Positions 1-59,339 of a DNA stretch of 64,000 nucleotides are shown here, one piece after another; the first letter of the stretch is position 1; each line of letters opens with the position of its first letter. The stretch comes from Octopus sinensis (Eukaryota). The DNA is taken from NCBI RefSeq assembly GCF_006345805.1, contig NC_043004.1, forward strand, positions 89,094,001-89,158,000, written 5' to 3'. The translations under genes were made by a program, and so were the position numbers. The notes below the pieces were generated by a model. The model made no database searches and was not told the origin of the DNA. It saw nothing but the letters and a program-made list of their open reading frames with translations.

Positions 1-1010
1 CAAGTTATGCAGATGATACAAAAGTTTCACAGGCAATACAGAACCCTGAAAACACTATGCACCTGCAATGTGACCTGCACAAAATATACAAGTGGGCTGA
101 AAAGAATAGCATGCAGTTTAATGCTGAAAAGTTTCAAGATTTATGCTATCAGCATGCAAAACTAAATGCAATACCCAATAAATACTCTGGACCTGGTGAG
201 ATTGCAATCCCAGAGGCACAATCAGTGCAAGACCTGGGTATTTACATGAGTAATGATGCAACCTTTCATGTGCATGTTGCTAAATTGGCAATGAGATGTA
301 GGCGGCTGACCGGATGGATTCTTAGAGCTTTTAGAACAAGAGACCAGGAAACCATGATGGTCCTCTGGAAGACACTTGTCCTAAGCCACTTTGACTATTG
401 CTCTCAGCTATGGTCACCAACCAGTGTCAAATTAATCACAGAACTTGAGGCAATCCAACGAAGCTACACGAAGAAGATAGCCTCTGTGCAGCATATAAGC
501 TATTGGGAAAGACTCAAGAGATTAAGACTCTATTCCTTAGAGCGTAGGTGAGAAAGATATGCCATAATATACATCTGGAAGGTCCTGGAAGGACTTGTCC
601 CAAACTTTGACATCGAGAGTTACACAAATACTAGAACTGGGTGCCACTGCATAGTGCCAAGGACTCCAAATTTGCCATCAAGATGTAGGACAAGATACTG
701 TGATAGCTTGGGCTTCAGAGGTCCACAGCTCTTCAATATCCTCCCGAATGACCTGAGAGACCTGCATGGGGTGGATGCAGATGTCTTTAAAATAAAGCTG
801 GACCTCTTCCTGTCAGGTGTCCCAGATGAACCAACTTCACGGCAGGAGGTGCAGATGAGGGCAGCTGCATCAAACTCTCTCATGCACCAAATGTCAATTG
901 CTAAAAAGCATTCGTGAAGTAAAATCATGTAGCAACACCAAATGGCGGTGCCCCAGCATGGCCACAGCACATGAGCTGAAACTAGATCAAATGAAAATCA
1001 AAAAAATGAA
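1..1010 (+). mobile_element. CR1/L2-group LINE, 3' part: reverse transcriptase C-terminus (one premature stop) plus 3' UTR
   Basis: Frame starting at base 3 reads SYADDTK (RT YADD motif at 6-17), then LQCDL..IYKW...M.FN..K, DLGI, LDYCSQLWSP-like and RLKRLRLYSLERR. A TGA at 549-551 interrupts the frame, which continues through GPQLFNILP...FKIKLDLFL to 917. A short 3' UTR and A-rich tail follow. Confidence 0.9.
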
Positions 1011-1687: not shown

Positions 1688-3235
1688 TCATCATCATCAT
1701 CATCGTTTAACGTCCGCTTTCCATGCTAGCATGGGTTGGACGGTTCAACTGGGGTCTGGGGAGCCCGAAGGCTGCACCAGGCCAGTCAGATCTGGCAGTG
1801 TTTCTACAGCTGGATGCCCTTCCTAACGCCAACCACTCCGAGAGTATAGTGGGTGATTTTATGTGCCACCGACACAGGTGCCAGATGAGGCTGGCAGACG
1901 GCCACGCTCGGATGGTGTTTTTTATGTGCCACGACACAGGTGCCAGACGAGGCTGGCAGACGGCCACGCTCGGATGGTGTTTTCTTATGTGTCACCGACA
2001 CAGGCGCCAGACGAGGCTGGCGAACGGCCACGCTCGGATGGTGTTTGTTACGTGCCCTCAGCACGGAGGCCAGTCAATGCGGTACTGGCTACGGTCACGT
2101 TCGGATGGTTTTCTTATGTGCCACCGGCACTGGTACCACAAGGATACAAATTCCATTGATGTTCATCTATTTTGATTTGATTTGATTTGATTTGATTTTC
2201 ACTTGCCTCAACAGTTCTTCACAAGTGTCACAAGAAGGAAGGTATGCACCACGGGTTATGGCTTCACTAGTCTTGCCGGGTCTTCTCACGCACAGCATAC
2301 TTCCATAGGTCTCGGTCTCTAGTCATTTCCATGGTGAGACCTAACGTCCGAAGGTCGTGCTTCACCACCTCGTCCCAGGTTTTCCTGGGTCTACCTCTTC
2401 CATGGGTTCCCTCAACTGCTAGGGATTGGCACTTTCTCACACACCTATCTTCATCCATTCTCGCCACATGACCATACCAGCGCAATCGTCTCTCTTGCAC
2501 ACCACAACTGATGCTTCTTAGGTACAACATTTCTCTCAAGGTACTAACGCTCTGTCGAGTAAGTACACTGACATTACACATCCATCGGAGCATACTGGTT
2601 TCGTTCCTCACGAGCTACGCATGTCCTCAGCAGTCACGGCCCATGTTTCATTGCCATGTAGCATAGCTGTTCGTAACATGCATCATACAGTCTGCCTTTT
2701 ACTCTGAGTGAGCGAGTACCTTTAGTCACCAGCAGAGGTAAGAGCTCCCTAAACTTTGCCCAGGCTATTCTTATTCTAGCAGTTACACTTTCAGCGCACC
2801 CACCCCCACTACTGACTTGGTCACCTAGATAGCGGAAGCTATCAACTACTTCTAGTTTTTCCCCCCGGAAAGTGACGGAAGTTGTTTTCTGCAGATTTTC
2901 GGAGGTCAATGCTCCAGAGCATCTGCCACATACAAAAACTATCTTCCCAGTTAGCCTACCTTTGACATTGCTGCACCTCTTATGTGTCCATAGCTTACAC
3001 TGGGTACATCTTATAGAGTTTCTACCTACACCTTTTCTACAGATCGAGCAGGGCCATCTTCCTGAGGATATTTGTGGATTGTCTACCTTTCTACTTATTA
3101 GTACTTTGGTTTTAGCTAGGTTGATTCTAAGGCCCTCGATTCTAAACCCTCCTTCCACACCTGGAACTTCTCCTCCAGTTCTGATAGTGACTCAGCAATT
3201 AGAGCGAGGTCGTCAGCATAGAGGAGCTCCCAGGG
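1688..3235 (-). mobile_element. RTE-clade LINE, 5'-truncated at the RT YADD motif, with long 3' UTR ending in (GAT)n
   Basis: [27 protein letters not shown], a Cys-rich segment (CSIC...C..C..W.H..C), FRYLGD, RVKGRLY and RRLRWYGHVARM...GRGRPRKTW. Several frameshifts. The ORF ends at 2267. The UTR 2266-1688 ends in ...ggacgttaaac(gat)n. Confidence 0.92.
1861..2140. repeat. About 63-bp tandem repeat (4-5 units) in the RTE 3' UTR
   Basis: atgtgccaccgacacaggtgccaga.gaggctggcagacggccacgctcggatggtgttt recurs at 1861, 1924 and 1987, with diverged units at 2050 and 2117. Confidence 0.9.
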
Positions 3236-3309
3236 GCATATATGCATATATAAATATACATACACATATATATATATATATATATAAATACATATATGCA
3301 TATATAAAT

Positions 3310-3340
<31 letters not shown>

Positions 3341-3361
3341 AATACATATATGCATATATAA

Positions 3362-3392
<31 letters not shown>

Positions 3393-3642
3393 AATACATA
3401 TATGCATATATAAATATACATACATATATAAATACATATATGCATATATAAATATACATACATATATAAATACATATATGCATATATAAATATACATACA
3501 TATATAAATACATATATGCATATATAAATATACATACATATATAAATACATATATGCATATATAAATATACATACATATATAAATACATATATGCATATA
3601 TAAATATACATCATATATAAATACATATATGCATAAATAAAT

Positions 3643-3675
<33 letters not shown>

Positions 3676-3863
3676 AATACATATATGCATATATAAATAT
3701 ACATACTATATATATATATAAATACATATATGCATATATAAATACATATATGCATATATAAATATACATACATATATATATATATATATAAATACATATA
3801 TGCATATATAAATATACATACATATATATATATATATATAAAAATACATATATGCATATATAA

Positions 3864-3894
<31 letters not shown>

Positions 3895-4364
3895 AATACA
3901 TATATGCATATATAAATATACATACATATATAAATACATATATGCATATATAAATATACATACATATATAAATACATATATGCATATATAATATACATAC
4001 ATATATATATATATATATAATACATATATGCATATATAAATATACATACATATATATATATATAAATACATATATGCATATATATATATATATATAATAC
4101 ATATATGCATATATAATATACATACATATATATATATATAATACATATATGCATATATAAATATACATACATATATATATATATAAATACATATATGCAT
4201 ATATAAATATACATATGCATATATAAATATACATATGCATATATAAATATACATACATATATATATATATATATATAAATACATATATGGCATATATAAA
4301 TATACATACATATATATATATATATAATACATATATGCATATATAAATATACATACATATATAT

Positions 4365-4412
<48 letters not shown>

Positions 4413-4625
4413 CATATATGCATATATAAATATACATACATATATGCATATATAAATATACATACATATATGCATATATAAATATACATACATATATGCA
4501 TATATAAATATACATACATATATGCATATATATAAATATACATACACACACACGTATATAAATATACATACACACACACGTATATAAATATACATACACA
4601 CACACGTATATAAATATACATATAT
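3236..4625. repeat. 1.4-kb AT-rich minisatellite built from (TA)n/(TACA)n
   Basis: Main unit aaatacatatatgcatatataaatatacatacatatat (38 bp). It shifts to 26-bp units near 4410-4620. Confidence 0.95.
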
Positions 4626-5286
4626 GATATTTTCGCTTTGCTAATTACAATATTTCAACCATTTAGAAATATTTTTAAGTGAACATTATTTCAAAAATGT
4701 AAGTTGTTTGTACAATAAATATTTATATTTATTTAGCAGACAATATTTTAATGTTTTGGTTAATTATTTTCAATTGAATACCATTACAATAATTTTTTTT
4801 GCCATATTTAAAAAATGTTTTAAAGTGAATATGACATTAAAAATACAGTAAATATGTCATAAAAGACCCATTTGTAAACTCAATGTGAAAAAATTTTTTT
4901 CCACAGGTTTTTTTTTTTTAAGTCAATTGAATGTATCTCACCTCTGAAGATTTGGTTACTATTTCTAGAACGGCCTGCTACCACATAACAGCTATTTGCA
5001 ATAAAGGACCCGAAATACTTGTTATGTGGTAGCAGAGCATGCAAGAAATAGCAGCCAAATCTCCTTTTCTGGGGAAAGGATCCATCAACGTATGATGTCA
5101 ATGTCACAATCATTGAAAGCATGCAAAATAACATGGAAAAGAAGAAAAAAATCACCCACAAAACAAAACTCCATTGCTGAGAAACTCAGGTTTTCCTGGT
5201 AATCCAATGGGTCACGGGTAGTAAAAGCAGAACATTGGAATGAGTGCTCAACACCGCATTGGTGGATAAATAATTTCTTTACTTGT

Positions 5287-14501: not shown

Positions 14502-14629
14502 CAGGGTGTCCCCAAAAAATGTATACACATAGTAGTTCGGCAAAAGAGAACGATAGAATAAGTACTAGGCTTACAAAGAATAACAAATTTACAATTATTT
14601 AAGTTGTGTATACATTTTGGGGGGACACC

Positions 14630-14632
<3 letters not shown>
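14502..14632. mobile_element. 131-bp Tc1-type MITE in (TA)n
   Basis: Terminal inverted repeats cagggtgtccccaaaaaatgtatacaca / tgtgtatacattttggggggacaccctg, with TA on both sides. Confidence 0.85.
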
Positions 14633-26499: not shown

Positions 26500-27420
26500 A
26501 CTAGCTGACGTACCCAGTTATTTCCAGGAAAGCGGGGCTTATCCCTTGGTTCTGTTCTCACAACTGTTTTGCTAAACCGGTAACAACAATACAAACTATG
26601 TAGCCCTTAAAACTGTTTTTGTGCATTTACAGAGAATACCAAACTGTCTTACACAGGATCTTGTTTTTAGGAATTCCTAGTAAGTTATGAAAACCCAAAT
26701 TGTGAAGTCAGTTATGTTATAACATGAAATTAATTACCTGATAGTAAGAATTCAAATAAAGTAGCCCTGGAAAGGGCTTTAATACGTTCCCAGATTATAG
26801 AGAACTTAAAAGGAAATACTAATAAGATATGTATATTAAAATCATGAAGCATGTTATGTAATAACAAGCTAATCAGATATGAGATAATAACAATTCAAAG
26901 TAAATAACTCTGAAAAAAGTTTTTGTGCATTCGCAGAGAATATTACCCTCAGTGGTGCTAGTGTTGGTATATTCATGAATAAGTCACTAACTGAAATAAA
27001 TGGATCTATTGTTTAGGAAAATACTATTTACTTGTCTAAGTGTTGATAAATTGCGAAAATAACTCAAATAGTTTAAATACTAAGAATTAAGCATACTCAA
27101 TTAGATTTATACGAAATAATTTACGAACATGAATGGGCTATTTCCCTTTGCTATATATATATATAAAGTTCCCTTTCAGGAGCGAATGGGTTATTTCCCT
27201 TGGATGCTTAAAAATAATATATTAGTTATACGTAGTAGATATAAGAATCCCTTCCAGGGGCCCTATTATCAAATTTTTCAACAATCTACGTATGTCACTA
27301 GTTTTCAAGACATGAGTTCTACTCATGTGTCAAGTTTCATCAAAATCGATAAAACGATGTGGGAGGAGTTAGATAACAACACCACAAACACACTCACAGA
27401 TTTCCACATATGTAGTAGAT
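26500..27420 (+). mobile_element. Non-autonomous Helitron/Helentron-like element
   Basis: Begins actagctgac..ccc and ends ...tgtagtagat, inserted in (TA)n with no evident TSD. Bases 26815-27420 recur inverted at 56795-57320. Confidence 0.55.
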
Positions 27421-27914
27421 ATATATATGTATGTGTGAGGGTGTGTGTGTGTGTGTTTGTGTCTGAGTGTGTGTATGTGTGTGTGTGTGTGTGTGTGTGT
27501 AAATATATACTGAAGAATTGGAAAATTCTGCCTATTCCTGAATTAAATCGTTGATATCTTACCAGCGTTATAATTCAAGGTCTAAGGAGGATAACTCTTT
27601 TACCTTTTTACTTTTTACATTTTAGTTTTTGTGTTTCCATTTTCCATTTTACGTTTTCCATTTTTTACTTTTCGTGTCTCCTATATGGTGCCTTCTCAGT
27701 TTTTTTTTACGTTTCTTCTCTTATTCAATTATTTTTTTCCATTATATGTAGTTTCTGCCTGAAGAATATATTTCAGATATTTCTCAACACATGAAACTAT
27801 TAGTAGAACTTAAAGACATGTATCATGTCCTTTAAATGAATAATATTTATCTCTCACCAGACGGAGTACATTTTGTGCCGAATTTTCTGTCATGGAACAA
27901 TACATTTTATATAC

Positions 27915-29958: not shown

Positions 29959-32399
29959 TGAAATAAAACGATTTCTGTTCAATCTGCGTTCAGCTCCATT
30001 TCTTCAATTCACCAATAATGTTTTAATTTCAATTATCCGCACCAACGCACGGTTGCAACGCCAGATGGTTGTACCTCCAACCGTGCTGTTTACTGCTGTG
30101 ATTTTTGCTACTAAGGTATCGGTTAAACTTTTGATTAATCTACTACATGATTATTCATCTTTCTATTTCACATAATATATATATATATATATATTCTTTT
30201 ATCTTTTACTTGTTTTTGTCATTAGACTGTGGCCATGCTGGAGCTCCATCTTTAAGAATTCTTAGTTCAATAAATTTACTCCAGTGTTTATTTTTTTTAA
30301 AAACTAGGTATTTATTTTATCGGTCTGTTTTGACTAACCACTAAGTTACAGGAATACAAACACGCTAACACCAGTTGTCAAGCAGTGGTGGAGGACGAAC
30401 ACAGACACATGCATACACACACACACATGCTCACACATACACAATGGGCTTCTTCCACTTTCCATCTACCAAATACACTCACAAGGTTTTCTTAACATGC
30501 AATCACTCTCTGTGTATGTGTATACGTGCATGTGTGTGTGTAAACATACAATTAATGATTTTTTCTTTATCACATCCAACAAGTATATTGAAGTTTATAC
30601 TTTGCTAATGAGGTCCAATAAGACCAAAACATACCCAGAGTTGTCTCCCTTATTTGCAAAACCAATTAAAATAATACATCAACGAGCAAATGTTATCTTT
30701 TCCTCACTGCATAATTATTATTTATAAGCTCTTTGAAATCTAATTAGTTCATTGATCTTTAATTAGCATACTGCAGTAAATATTTCACAGCAAGCTGGCA
30801 GAATCATTAGAAAGTCATACAGAACACTTTGCTGGTTTTTTTGTTCTGGATCTCTGCACTCTGAGTTCAAATACTGATGAGATCAACTTTGCCTTTTATT
30901 CTTTTGGGATCAATAAATAAAGTGTGCCTGTGTGGTGAAGAAGCTGACTTTGCAACCACATGGTTTTGGGTTCAGTCCCATCACATGGCATTTAGCCCAG
31001 GCTGACCAATGCCTTGAACAAATTTGTTAAACAGAGGCTGTGTGGAACCTTGTTGTATATGTGTGTGTGTGTGTACGTATGTGCACGTGTGTGTGTGTCT
31101 GTGCATATGTATGTCTGTGTGTATGTATGTATATGTGTATGTGCGTGTGTCTGTGTGTATGAATCTCTGTGTACAGATATGTGTATATGTGTACATTTGT
31201 GAACCCCCACTCTCAAAACTTGACAACCGGTGTTGGCTTGTTTATGTCTCCATAACTTAGCAGTTCAGCAAAAGAGACCAATAAAATAAGTAACAGACCT
31301 AAGACACTAGTACAGTACTAGAGTCGATTCTCTCTCTCGTTCTTTATTTTCACCCCACCACCCTCTCTCCCCTCTCTCTCCCTCTCTCTCCCTCTCTCTC
31401 CCTCTCTCTCCCTCTCTCTCCCTCTCTCTCCCCCTCTCTCCCTCTCTAAGATAACAGCTCTGGAGAGAGATGGATGTCACTAACTTTAAATGTCCAAAAT
31501 ACTCGATATATCATAATAGCATGCTTACATCTCCATCAGGAGCTGATGGCCCAAGTCGAGACATTCAATGTGATAAAATTCACCCCAAAGCATCTCCTAA
31601 TATAATAATGTGCATAGTGTTTTTATATATTTGTATATATATATATATATATATTTGTCCAGAATCACGCTGGACATAGAGGAGGAGAGACAATAGTAAT
31701 TCAGTGAAGGAGAAGTAGTGAGAGTAATAGCCCTGACTGAGAGGGAGTGAGAGAAAGTAATAGCAATGAGAGAAATGAAGGGGTGATAGATGAATAAGGA
31801 AGGAAGGGGTGAAAAAAATCAGCATTTCAACTGTGTGAGTATATGTGTGTATGTATGTGTACAAGGGAAGTATGTGAATGTTTGTATGTGGGATTATTAT
31901 GTACCTTATTTAAATATGAAATACTACAATTAGCCATCATGGCACATGGTCAGCTAGTAACTTATATTGAAGGAAGGGCACCTATATTGAATAATGATGT
32001 CTCATTACACAAACATTCAGTTCTCCCTCTTACAGTGGATAGTAACAGATCAGACCAGAACATGGCATTCATAAAAATCCTGCCAGGAACAGGATACACC
32101 ATGACATATATTCACAATGAACACAGATACAAGCCAATGAGAGAGTTTTTATGTGTCTGTCTGACCTGATAGTATTAGCAGCCAAATTTCCATCAGAACC
32201 CACCCAAATATATTTGAAATGAAGAATGGTACAAGATTGAGTACACTCTGTTTGAAAAACCAAACCATAAATGGCATAGTGATGTCTTAAATGTCACATC
32301 AAAGTTGTATCCTTAACTGGCTGGAAAACTAAATTAGCTTCTGTTGTCGTTACTGTTTATTAGTAGAATGGACAAGAGTACCCCTCACTATAAAAAGAA

Positions 32400-32630
32400 A
32401 TAAATGTGCCCTTTTAAAGCTTAGCCAGGCTCATGGGCCCGGTTTCCCGGTTTCTATGGCATATGTGTTCCCCAGCTGGATGGGATGTCAGTCCATCATG
32501 GCGTTACTCATATTTGCCAGCTGAGTGGACTGGAGCAACGTGAAATGAAGTGTTTTGCTCAAGAATACAACGCGTTGCCTGGTCCAGGAATTGAAACCAC
32601 AATCTTACTATCATGGTGCTGACACTCTAA
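32400..32630 (-). mobile_element. tRNA-derived SINE family D (C-like head, different tail)
   Basis: Shares cagctgagtggactggagcaacgtgaaat...gctcaagaa with family C but ends in aaaccgggaaaccgggcccatgagcc...gggcacattta. Partial copies at 33158-33238 and 46065-46270. Confidence 0.7.
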
Positions 32631-33599
32631 CTGGGCCTGGTGCAGCCTTCTGGCTACCCAGACCCCAGTTGAACCGTCCAACCCTTGCTAGCATGGAAAG
32701 TGGACACTAAATGATGATGATGATGATGTTACACATGTTTAGCCTATCTCTCTCCAATGACAGAATACCCAGCCTAAGGAATCTTCTCTCGACATGATGT
32801 TCCAATAGTTGGAATATTCTAGGAAAACCTTTCTATTATATAGCTAAATTAAATGTCCTTGTGAGGTCTTGCCAAACTGTTTGTTTTCTCATTTTACTTT
32901 AATCTATATATATATATGTGTGTGTGTGTGTATGGTATGTATGTGTGTATGTATGTATTCATATAAATACTTCCAAACCACATGGTATTGAGTTCAGTCC
33001 CACTGGACAGCACCTTGGGCAAGTGTATTTTACTATAGCTCCAGGCCATCCAAAGCCTTATAAGTGGATTTGCTAATCAGAAACTGAAAGAAAGAAACTT
33101 GGTGTGTGTGTGTTTATTAGTAGAATGGACAAGAGTAGCCCTCACTATAAAAAAAAATAAATGTGCCCTTTTAAAGCCTAGCTAGGCTCATGGGCCCGGT
33201 TTCCCGGTTTCTATGGTATATGTGTTCCCCAGCTGGATGTGTGTGTGTGTGTGCCCTTGTCTTGACATTAATGGTGATTGTAAATGTGCATCATCGTCAT
33301 ACATGCAATCGCCACCATCATCATCATCATCGCCATCATCCTCATTATCATCATCATCATCATTTAAGGTCCACTTCACATGCTGGCACAGGTTGGATGG
33401 CTTGACAGGAATTGGCAAGGCAAGGGGACCACACTGGGTTTCATAGTCTGTTTTGGCTTGTTTTCTACAATTGGCTGCCTTTCCAAATGCTATCTGGGTG
33501 TACTGGGTGCTTTTTACATGACACCATCACCAATTCTGTTTTTGTTGCACCAGCACCAGAGCAGCACCCACATCAATGCATTTTACATGGCACTTTGGT

Positions 33600-56440: not shown

Positions 56441-56796
56441 ACTAGCAGTATCGCCCGGCGTTGCTTGGGTTTGCTTTGACCCTTTAGAATTGGAATTTTT
56501 GAAAAATAAAAATTTTGCATTATGTAGCTTGTTATTCTCTTTAAGTGAACATTTTTCTGGTTGAAATACACTGAAAAATGGCAACACAGCAGTCAAAAAA
56601 AGCATCTTTTTGATGTAAATAATTTTTGGTCTTAACATTGTCCAATTTGAATTTTATCTTCTGCGGAATGAAGGGCAAGCCTTCTATTATACTCTCAATT
56701 TTGGTCAACTTGCACCTCAGGGTCTCGGAGAAGATAGTTAGTTGAATGCTACCAAACCTGCTACACACAGACAATTTCAGCTTTATATATAGAGAT
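56441..56796 (+). mobile_element. Non-autonomous Helitron/Helentron-like element (second family)
   Basis: Starts actagcagtatcgcccggcgttgcttggg and ends cagctttatatatagagat. A similar 5' end occurs at 52265. Confidence 0.55.
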
Positions 56797-57320
56797 TTAC
56801 TACATGTGGGAAATTCTGTCTGTAGGTGTGTTTGTAGAGTTGTTAGCTAACTCCTCCTACATTGTTTTATCGATTTTGATGAAACTTGACATGAGTAGAA
56901 CTCATGTCTGGAAACCTTATGGCATACTCAGATTGTTGAAAAAAATCGATAATAGAACCCCTGGAAGGGATCCTTATATATAGCCAAGAGAAATAACCCA
57001 TTCATTTTCCTAAATTATTTGGTAAAAATGAAATTAAGTATGCGTATTTCTTAGTATTTGAACTGTTAGAGTTATTTTCGCAATTTATCCAGTACATCCC
57101 TTAAACAAATAGTATTTTCCTAAACAATAGATCCCCTTATTTCGGTTAGTGACTTATTCATAAATATACCAGCACTAGTGCCCCTGAGGGTAATATTTTC
57201 TGGGAACACCAAAAGCCCTTTTCAGAGTTATTTACTTTGAATTGTTATTATCTCATATCTTACTAGCCTGTTATTACGTAACATGCTTTATGATTTTAGT
57301 ATACATACCTTATTAGCATT
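56795..57320 (-). mobile_element. Partial inverted copy of the 26500-27420 element
   Basis: For example ttttatcgattttgatgaaacttgaca.gagtagaactcatgtc is the reverse complement of 27308-27355. Confidence 0.75.
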
Positions 57321-57321
57321 T

Positions 57322-57578
57322 GAGCGAGAGATGAACTGAATGCAAAGATCATAGCAGCATTCACCAACTTAAACAACGAGACCGTCTAGAAAAGTTCCAG
57401 GAGATTCCAAATTTGTCTGGAGGCTGTGGTTGAAGCCAATAGCAATTTTACTGAATAAATGTAATCTTTAGTATTTCAAGATATTTTAATGTAATTTTAG
57501 TAAATATATCTGTTAAAATGAGATGACAGTGTTATTTTCATTTTTGCATAATTTAGATGACAGTTTATTTACCACACC

Positions 57579-57581
<3 letters not shown>
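57322..57581 (+). mobile_element. Tc1 transposase C-terminal remnant with right TIR
   Basis: ELNAKIIAAFTNLN...RFQICLEAVVEANSNFTE*, ending ...cacaccctg followed by TA. Confidence 0.65.
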
Positions 57582-57619
<38 letters not shown>

Positions 57620-57620
<1 letters not shown>

Positions 57621-57993
57621 TTCAGAGATTTATTATTGCTTGTTTACACTTTTTCGAGATCAGTGACTTTTCGTCACTGGAAAAAGGATATATGTATTTG
57701 CATTGGGACTCCTTCACATTGAAGACCGGTTATTGTTGTGCACTGACGATGGGTAAATACCCAGAAACCCAGGTCCGTGTGTATCACGTCAGGTCAACAA
57801 TGGGAAGGATGGCTTCCTTTTGCAAATACTAATAGGGCTCAGAAAGTGTGTCAATAGCCAGCTGGAGAAGATGTTCTCCTGGGGCTACAAGCTACAGTAG
57901 CATCCACCCTTAGTGGTTAGCCACATTTAAGTGGCAAATATACTTCACATTGTCGTGCAGCTACTGTTTATACCTGGTTCAGAGATTTATTAT
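57620..57993 (+). mobile_element. 357-nt hammerhead-containing unit with 17-nt terminal direct repeat (retrozyme-like)
   Basis: gttcagagatttattat occurs at 57620 and 57977, with (TA)n outside both; hammerhead core inside; no ORF of note. Confidence 0.55.
57738..57780 (+). ncRNA. Type I hammerhead ribozyme with canonical core
   Basis: CTGACGA 57743-57749, stem II tgggt-aaat-accca, GAAA 57764-57767, stem III cc-ca-gg, GUC 57773-57775. Stem I is weak (one mismatch plus G-U pairs). Confidence 0.7.
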
Positions 57994-59339
57994 ATATATA
58001 TATTTAAGTTTTTGTCTACAAAATTCACTTGCAAGGTGTTGATCAGCCCAAGGCTACAGTAAAAGACACTTGCTCAAGGTGCTGTGCAGTGGAACTGAAC
58101 CCAAGACCAAAGCAGCAATTCGGGTAGGTATATAATCTGCCTCAAAGAATTCCATCTGAAACATGCGAGCATTGAAAAGTAGAATGTTAAAACAATGACA
58201 ATGCTGATGATCATCATCATTTGACATCCATTTTCCATGCTGGCATGGCTTAGTTTAATTGGAAATGGTAAGCTACAGAGCTGCACCAGACTCCACTCCA
58301 TATAGTATACTGGGTGCCTTTTATATGTCACCGGCACAGATGTTTTTTATGTGTCACTGACATTGATATATTAATAATTTAGTAAAAATTATATCAATCT
58401 TTTCATATCGACCCTCTTTTTAATTTTATCAATTAATACAAGTTACACACTGACATGTGGTGTGTTGTGGCACTGTTTCTGTGTTTATGAGAATTATGTT
58501 AATATAAATATGAATACATGCAAGAAATAACAGCTAAAACACCCTTAAATGATATCTGCCATCTTATAAATGAAAGACTGGGATACTTTTCTTTCGATTA
58601 TATGTATGGTCATGCGTATGCGGGTACTTGAAAATATATTATGGAGTGACAACCGCGTCCTGTATAGTTACAAGCTGCCCTTTGGCATGACATTGAATCT
58701 GTTCATCCACCCTGTTAGGGATATGGTGAAGTCATGGGATTGCAACATGGTAGAGTGTAAAGAGGTAGCAGAAGAGCTCAACTAAGCTAACAACACTTCT
58801 TTATATTGATGCTGAGCAGAGGAATCCGAGAAGATCAATAGTCAGGATCACCAACCTCTATCAAAAGAGTAACTGCAATGCACCCATAGGTGTAATCAAG
58901 TAATGAAAGATTCACTATCACTCAAGCCCCCAATTCAAATTCATAATGGCTTGCAGGATGGCCTACTGTGCTAACCTTGGATCGCAGGGTGACTTGCTGT
59001 GCTTGAGGAGACCTATTGAGTCAAGTACATCATCAAAATAAAAATCAAATGGATAAAAGCACCATCTGAACGTGGCCGATGCCAGCGGCACCTGACTTGC
59101 GTGTTTTGGTGATACGTAAAGAGCACCAACCGATCGTGGCCGTTTGCCAGCCTCCCCTGGCCCCTGTGCTGGTGGCACGTAAAAAGCACCCACTACACTC
59201 ACGGAGTGGTTCACGTTAGGAAGGGCATCCGGCTGTAGAAACACTGCCAGATCAGACTGGAGCCCGGCGCAGCCTCCTGGCTTCCTAGACCCCAGTTGAA
59301 TCGTCCAACCCATGCTAGCATGGAAAACGGACGTTAAAC

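Follow-up and report, generated by a model that had tools for sequence, protein, structure and literature searches.

Among the metazoan non-LTR retrozymes, the repeats of Mytilus measure 350-390 bp and those of the axolotl 330-350 bp (Cervera and de la Pena 2020, PMC7229834), and molluscan representatives are known from Mytilus (PMC7229834; PMC7761336). The 'canonical' type I hammerhead of animals consists of a helix I of 6 bp, a helix II of 4 bp and a helix III of 1-2 bp with a palindromic loop, and its efficient cutting needs dimers, whereas the minimal hammerhead of Penelope-type elements (PLEs) has a helix II of 7-8 bp, a helix I of 4-5 bp and a reduced or absent helix III (PMC4209133). 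The axolotl hammerhead HHR_Amex2 still cuts although the base of its helix II is mismatched (PMC7229834). Non-LTR retrozymes have been argued to be non-autonomous PLE derivatives, of which dispersed monomers are common (Li, Clavereau and Pollet 2026, 10.64898/2026.07.22.740005). In the PLE Poseidon of Anolis, internal initiation occurs at two sites bounding a tail of 30-40 bp, and uncut RNA is the main substrate in vitro (PMC11167929); PLE tails and (TA)n targets are also described for Neptune/Naiad (10.1101/2021.04.23.441226). In O. vulgaris 190 PLE families have been reported, 31 of them recently active, and the available parts of that repeat annotation, together with a term search of its supplement, hold no mention of ribozymes (PMC13282606). 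The enzyme that moves animal retrozymes, and the role of the circle as template, are still left open in the available parts of PMC7229834, PMC7761336 and 10.64898/2026.07.22.740005. At the locus described here lies one slightly decayed copy of a non-coding repeat of 357 nt that exists in many copies, in our judgement probably a non-LTR retrozyme and likely moved by a PLE enzyme.

The locus was analysed within a window of 64 kb, the whole stretch of Octopus sinensis DNA under study, which is AT-rich and packed with microsatellites and short interspersed repeats. The features of the insert are collected in the table. Its 357-nt unit has a GC content of 0.43, and both size and GC lie inside the retrozyme range (150-450 bp, GC <50%). 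A repeat comparison within the 64-kb window found no second copy of the unit, positions 57618-57993 hold a single insert and no tandem array, no LTR-length repeat was seen at the locus in the repeat searches of the window, and the window contains no tRNA or tmRNA genes. The (TA)n that the initial annotation had noticed outside the insert is indeed present on both sides.

The left flank (57321-57581) gives a translation with one stop, which resembles the C-terminus of a Tc1/mariner transposase, and has a TIR-like motif at its end, directly before the (TA)n run. The right flank (58004-58110) is an antisense fragment of the commonest SINE-like repeat of the window, and it is devoid of ~12 nt that 10 other matching copies have after the TA-rich run; this gap is perhaps a small deletion at insertion. 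Elsewhere in the window, a short MITE-like element with terminal inverted repeats lies between TA runs (14502-14632), and two copies of another repeat, 81-85% identical and on opposite strands, occupy 56763-57320 and 26677-27452. LINE-like coding fragments were observed at 2634-3191 (-) and 552-917 (+). The former contains a PHD-type finger and is broken by an AT-rich tandem array of 1.4 kb (3237-4630); the best named relatives of 2637-3191 are proteins of Octopus vulgaris (82% identity) and of O. bimaculoides, and some of these relatives have an RT domain. A direct repeat with a spacing of 757 nt and exact 17-mers in common (32354-33155) and a 62-nt tandem repeat of 3.2 copies with 91% matches (1857-2056) were also present.

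Table. Coordinates of the insert, of its predicted structures and of the flanking runs (positions in the 64-kb window)
Feature	Position	Strand	Remark
Whole insert (1.05 units): a 357-nt unit followed by 19 nt of another	57618..57993	+	other copies have loose ends starting upstream of 57618 and downstream of 57993
(TA)n run, left flank, likely target	57582..57617	.	
(AT)5 run, right flank, likely target	57994..58003	.	
Redundancy, first copy, 19 nt, element sequence	57618..57636	+	18/19 identical to 57975-57993
Redundancy, second copy	57975..57993	+	57976 is a private change
Hairpin of 7 pairs; loop appears inverted in some copies	57661..57679	+	loose ends before 57673-57676 in X12 and X5
Long predicted arm with the hammerhead at its tip	57711..57808	+	closed by pairing of 57711-57727 with 57792-57808
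Type I hammerhead: helix I of 6 pairs and, across an internal loop, a further 5; helix II; short helix III	57729..57787	+	
Catalytic core	57743..57775	+	descriptor search; predicted cleavage 57775/57776 from established hammerhead numbering
Helix II	57750..57763	+	
Helix III	57767..57774	+	palindromic loop in the family
Hairpin of 6 pairs	57864..57879	+	unphased variants at both members of pair 57868-57875 agree with A-U/G-U/G-C
3' domain: stem 57897-57901 with 57960-57964 around small hairpins	57897..57964	+	one small hairpin at 57920-57935
Candidate Penelope-type 'tail', ~45 nt between the 3'-end clusters (inferred)	57947..57993	+	

Parts of the unit were found in 20 of the 24 public runs listed (11 studies, five organism codes). 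Four runs, X3, X12, X5 and X11, labelled as organisms A, A, B and E, were aligned on 57612-58003 at 85% likeness, and the contigs that matched the unit numbered 3928, 701, 6516 and 2924, respectively, with many variant letters. Since thousands of contigs in all four runs match it, the 357-nt unit is a many-copy repeat family, present in runs labelled as three organisms. The run data consist of contigs, which inform on presence and junctions, not on RNA level, strand or ends, and from which copy number is not readable. None of the runs with the unit is on record as RNA, and X12 counts as an RNA run only by a guess. Contig depth was far higher over 57850-57990 than over the hammerhead; it is in the stretch of low depth that the private letters of this copy are concentrated, and contig depth cannot rank the parts of the unit. 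One truncated copy of 140 nt (57848-57987), with equal flank lengths, was observed both in X3 (record 23, organism A) and in X5 (record 32, organism B). This insertion, common to organisms A and B, implies either that the family predates their split or that the two labels are close. Two motifs of the unit gave no matches in metagenome, viral and prokaryote collections (six of six scans).

The initial annotation had described a terminal redundancy of 17 nt. An exact 17-mer does stand at 57620 and 57977, 357 nt apart, but its length has to be corrected to 19 nt with the family letters: 96-98% of the aligned depth at 57976 is C in each of the four runs, the letter of this copy being private, and the redundancy therefore begins at 57618. 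The 17-mer repeat alone proved little, because such repeats are common in this repeat-rich window (exact 17-mers are repeated within 1 kb at 29 places). The loose ends of the contigs are more informative about its nature. Before 57618 their consensus is the unit's own 3' end (33 contigs in X3, 12 in X11 and 2 in X12; agreement 0.65-0.93), and behind 57993 they give the unit letters from 57637 on and then AT-rich sequence (69, 6, 69 and 33 contigs in X3, X12, X5 and X11; agreement 0.5-0.6). Joints that go back by exactly 357 nt, from unit end to unit start, were three among 15 of the 65 joint rows; they come from the DNA runs X3 and X5, each is carried by one contig per run, and the short side reaches 57 letters at most. 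None of the contigs extends over a whole unit, so no dimer with two hammerheads was seen. The alternative offered by the initial annotation, an ordinary 17-bp TSD, was rejected, as the repeat occurs in other copies with the same context on both sides, where unit end reads into unit start and the unit continues past 57993. The terminal repeat is element sequence, and hence the insert comprises 1.05 units.

The hammerhead core reported in the initial annotation was found at CUGACGA (57743-57749), GAAA (57764-57767) and GUC (57773-57775), which is 124-156 nt into the unit as first annotated. A type I hammerhead descriptor run on both strands returned this core as its sole match in the window, after 32 CUGANGA starts had been examined. 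In 200 dinucleotide shuffles the chance expectation was 0.015 matches per window with a helix II of at least five pairs, and 0.105 with at least three. The closing arm of the long predicted structure holds in 14 of 14 pairs, both with the letters of this copy and with those of the family, and its closing stems also appear in the minimum-energy fold. As for the claim of a canonical hammerhead, the core letters stand and the ribozyme of this copy is not intact. Helix I has 9 of its 11 pairs (5/6 proximal, 4/5 distal), with A facing C in pair 2.1-1.1 (57742-57776). At minimum energy the core takes the form of an alternative hairpin of -16.1 kcal/mol, whereas the hammerhead helices, as constrained, come to +1.5 kcal/mol. 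At the gathering score Rfam gave no matches anywhere in the window, and with E allowed up to 10 the region 57400-58200 gave 18 weak matches, with no ribozyme among them. The locus is a monomer in which both helix I and the palindrome are broken; it is therefore predicted to be inactive, and this copy would cut poorly or not at all.

A different picture emerges with the family letters, that is, those reaching at least 75% of the depth in X3 and X5 and unlike this copy, which were found at 14 sites among 40 of the 89 variant rows. Eight of these 14 sites are CpG-like changes, and this copy decayed after insertion, largely at such sites. With the family letters helix I has all of its 11 pairs (6/6 proximal, 5/5 distal): pairs 57742-57776 and 57731-57785 are repaired, pair 57737-57781 is tightened, and 57767-57774 becomes fully self-complementary, giving a palindromic loop in helix III. 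In nine X3 contigs, read by eye, other letters make up the 5' strand of helix I and pair along the whole of 57776-57781, and X11 has A at 57740 with the pairing of helix I kept. No variant row falls on the core letters among 40 of the 89 listed. The unvaried core among these rows and a helix I whose pairing is kept by different letters suggest selection on the hammerhead fold. By its letters, the family hammerhead is a predicted ribozyme of the canonical, dimer-type animal type I architecture. The pair usual at the base of helix II is G10.1-C11.1; in the family, 57750 is C (A in X11) and faces A at 57763, a position with no variant row among 40 of the 89. Owing to this apparent mismatch, even the family may cut weakly.

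Further folds were examined along the unit. The second hairpin of the initial annotation, at 57661-57679, was confirmed as a perfect 7-pair stem. In some X12 and X5 contigs its loop is replaced by its own reverse complement while the upstream sequence runs forward, so that a micro-inversion between the stem arms appears to have occurred in part of the family. Compensatory change would suit the unphased variants at 57868/57875 and, in the 3' domain, those at 57900/57961 (G-C/A-U). Single variant letters at paired positions of the minimum-energy fold of this copy break the pair in 13 of 23 cases. The stability of the unit fold corresponds to z of -3.7 as a linear and -5.8 as a circular molecule, with 59% of the letters paired, and five of 20 random pieces of the window fell below -3.7.

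The statement that the unit holds no meaningful ORF also stood: the longest stop-free frame in six frames has 70 codons, and five plus-strand stretches of the unit gave no Pfam match above cut-off. Comparison of the 70-codon frame with longer proteins brought up five candidates, none at E 0.01, which is weak evidence from one frame. No RT or GIY-YIG frame adjoins the unit at this locus. The ATG at 57749 was considered as a PLE start codon and discarded, since it needs the private letter 57750 and opens only 27 codons. Taken together, the core match, the contigs in all four runs and the lack of a coding frame bear out the retrozyme-like, multi-copy, non-coding 357-nt unit with a type I hammerhead that had been proposed for this locus.

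The ends of the copies were surveyed in 32 of 14,314 pieces, picked by length, counting the ends with at least 20 unmatched letters. Eight of the 32 pieces had 3' stops, three at 57947-57951 and five at 57987-57994 (two of the latter are one locus), and nine had 5' stops, scattered over 57772-57849; X3 record 19 is the piece that starts at 57772. Among the loose ends, 27 X11 contigs stop at 57948 and pass into AT-rich sequence, and seven X12 contigs stop at 57949 and pass into a CA repeat. Near 57990 the 3' stops fall at the edge of the aligned unit and near 57950 at the variable letters 57949-57952, so that both clusters are possibly in part an alignment artefact, and some of the 5' stops adjoin private changes of this copy (57818, 57839). 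AT-rich sequence follows both 57993 and 57948, in a host genome that is itself rich in AT and microsatellites. The initial annotation had predicted circularly permuted genomic copies, which is not what this small visible sample contains, its 3' stops lying in two clusters and its 5' stops being scattered. The copy ends give a hint of a Penelope-like footprint.

The course of events that we favour can be set out as follows. Head-to-tail copies would be transcribed, and pairs of hammerheads would cut at 57775/57776, in dimer mode because helix III has only 1-2 pairs; the monomers may then be ligated to circles. A PLE RT/GIY-YIG protein would nick AT-rich DNA and start reverse transcription inside the RNA, ~175 or ~220 nt past the cut site, and most products would stop early and leave 5'-truncated pieces. 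The product seen at this locus would contain the full unit, copied through the ribozyme, and 19 nt more, which would call for circular RNA or an uncut transcript of tandem units as template. In the direction of the cDNA, it has 218 nt from its start near 57993 to the cut site and a further 158 nt from there to its end. Because this copy reads through the cleavage site, its template would not be a simply cut monomer; it may have been a circle or a tandem transcript left uncut, or the enzyme may have jumped templates, and the DNA fits all of these alike. The more specific proposal that the copy ends record two-start-site Penelope copying of a re-ligated hammerhead circle, with the mismatch at the base of helix II tolerated, is one that we put forward only tentatively.

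One question is whether the unit might be the pseudo-LTR (pLTR) of an autonomous PLE, in which case the locus would be a solo or heavily 5'-truncated copy and not part of a free-standing retrozyme family. The 3'-anchored, 5'-truncated pieces, the AT-rich targets and the tail-like interval all agree with such an origin, and some PLE pLTRs carry type I hammerheads with a palindromic helix III (PMC4209133). The contigs are also too short to reveal kilobases of upstream sequence, and the agreement of the consensus before 57618 is only 0.65-0.78. However, unit end joins unit start with a period of 357 and with no coding sequence between them, and the full helix I, the 4-pair helix II and the presence of helix III are unlike the minimal PLE form. 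The 70-codon frame, with neither a Pfam match nor a relative among longer proteins, argues weakly in the same direction, and the Poseidon-like ATG at helix II exists only through the private letter 57750. On balance a pLTR origin appears unlikely.

A retrozyme whose hammerhead works is also to be weighed against a short repeat mobilised by a PLE from uncut read-through RNA, in which the hammerhead would survive as an inherited relic, with no cutting in vivo and no circles arising from it. The mismatch that the family seems to have at the base of helix II speaks for a relic, as do two published results, namely that ribozyme mutants of the anole PLE left insertion in vitro unaffected (PMC11167929) and that eight of nine Xenopus retrozyme dimers showed no cleavage in vitro (10.64898/2026.07.22.740005). 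Against it, the core has no variant among 40 of the 89 rows and the helix I variants keep their pairing across lineages, and we regard a mere relic as a decidedly poor prospect. Finally, an ordinary dispersed repeat with a 17-bp TSD, or a DNA-level satellite unit, with a hammerhead-like motif by chance, would suit the many exact 17-mer repeats of the window and the lack of an Rfam match, but is very improbable given that the 17-mer has the same context in other copies, that the family letters improve the ribozyme fold and that a descriptor match is so rarely expected by chance.

We return to the retrozyme as the preferred reading. Retrozymes are known from many animals, a mussel included, so that another family is a modest gain and its value is that of a test case. 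With a family of high copy number whose ends can be mapped in several related genomes, the questions of enzyme and template would become testable by counting: fixed 3' ends would point to a Penelope enzyme, 5' ends piled at the cut site to linear templates, and copies slightly over one unit to circles or tandem transcripts. If Penelope copying of the circle were true, the copies would be direct genomic evidence for a hammerhead circular RNA as a Penelope template by internal initiation. No cephalopod retrozyme was found in the literature searched; the supplement of PMC7229834 may list some, and Repbase, Dfam or the O. vulgaris repeat library may label the family otherwise.

In comparison with the metazoan non-LTR retrozymes, the octopus family has in common a non-coding unit of a few hundred nt, GC <50%, a type I hammerhead of canonical size, many copies and head-to-tail junctions. 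It shares with HHR_Amex1 of the axolotl a short helix III with a palindromic tetraloop, and with HHR_Amex2 a weak base of helix II (PMC7229834). It differs in its octopus host and in the 1.05-unit monomer inserted in (TA)n. On hammerhead type, size, GC, absence of a frame and number of copies, it likely belongs to the metazoan non-LTR retrozymes.

The comparison extends to the EN+ PLEs and their pLTR and tail. Two apparent 3'-end sites, tens of nt apart, lie past the hammerhead, the first of them in AC-rich sequence, and 5' truncation and AT-rich or (TA)n targets are likewise shared (Poseidon, PMC11167929; Neptune/Naiad, 10.1101/2021.04.23.441226). In contrast to these elements, the octopus unit has no RT/GIY-YIG frame at this locus and its hammerhead is canonical, not minimal: helix II of 4-5 positions, helix I of 6+5 pairs and a helix III that is present do not fit the minimal PLE form. 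Compared with Poseidon, the interval between the 3'-end sites is ~45 nt and not 30-40, and the starts would lie 175-220 nt past the cut site and not ~90; the ATG at the start of helix II is placed as in the anole element, but only in this octopus copy. The dispersed hammerhead-repeat monomer and the link to PLEs are shared with the proposal of Li, Clavereau and Pollet 2026 (10.64898/2026.07.22.740005), in which such a monomer is an offspring copy unable to transpose. That proposal covers vertebrates and four invertebrates and was argued from co-occurrence and pLTR homology, whereas the hint in the octopus comes from the positions of the copy ends.
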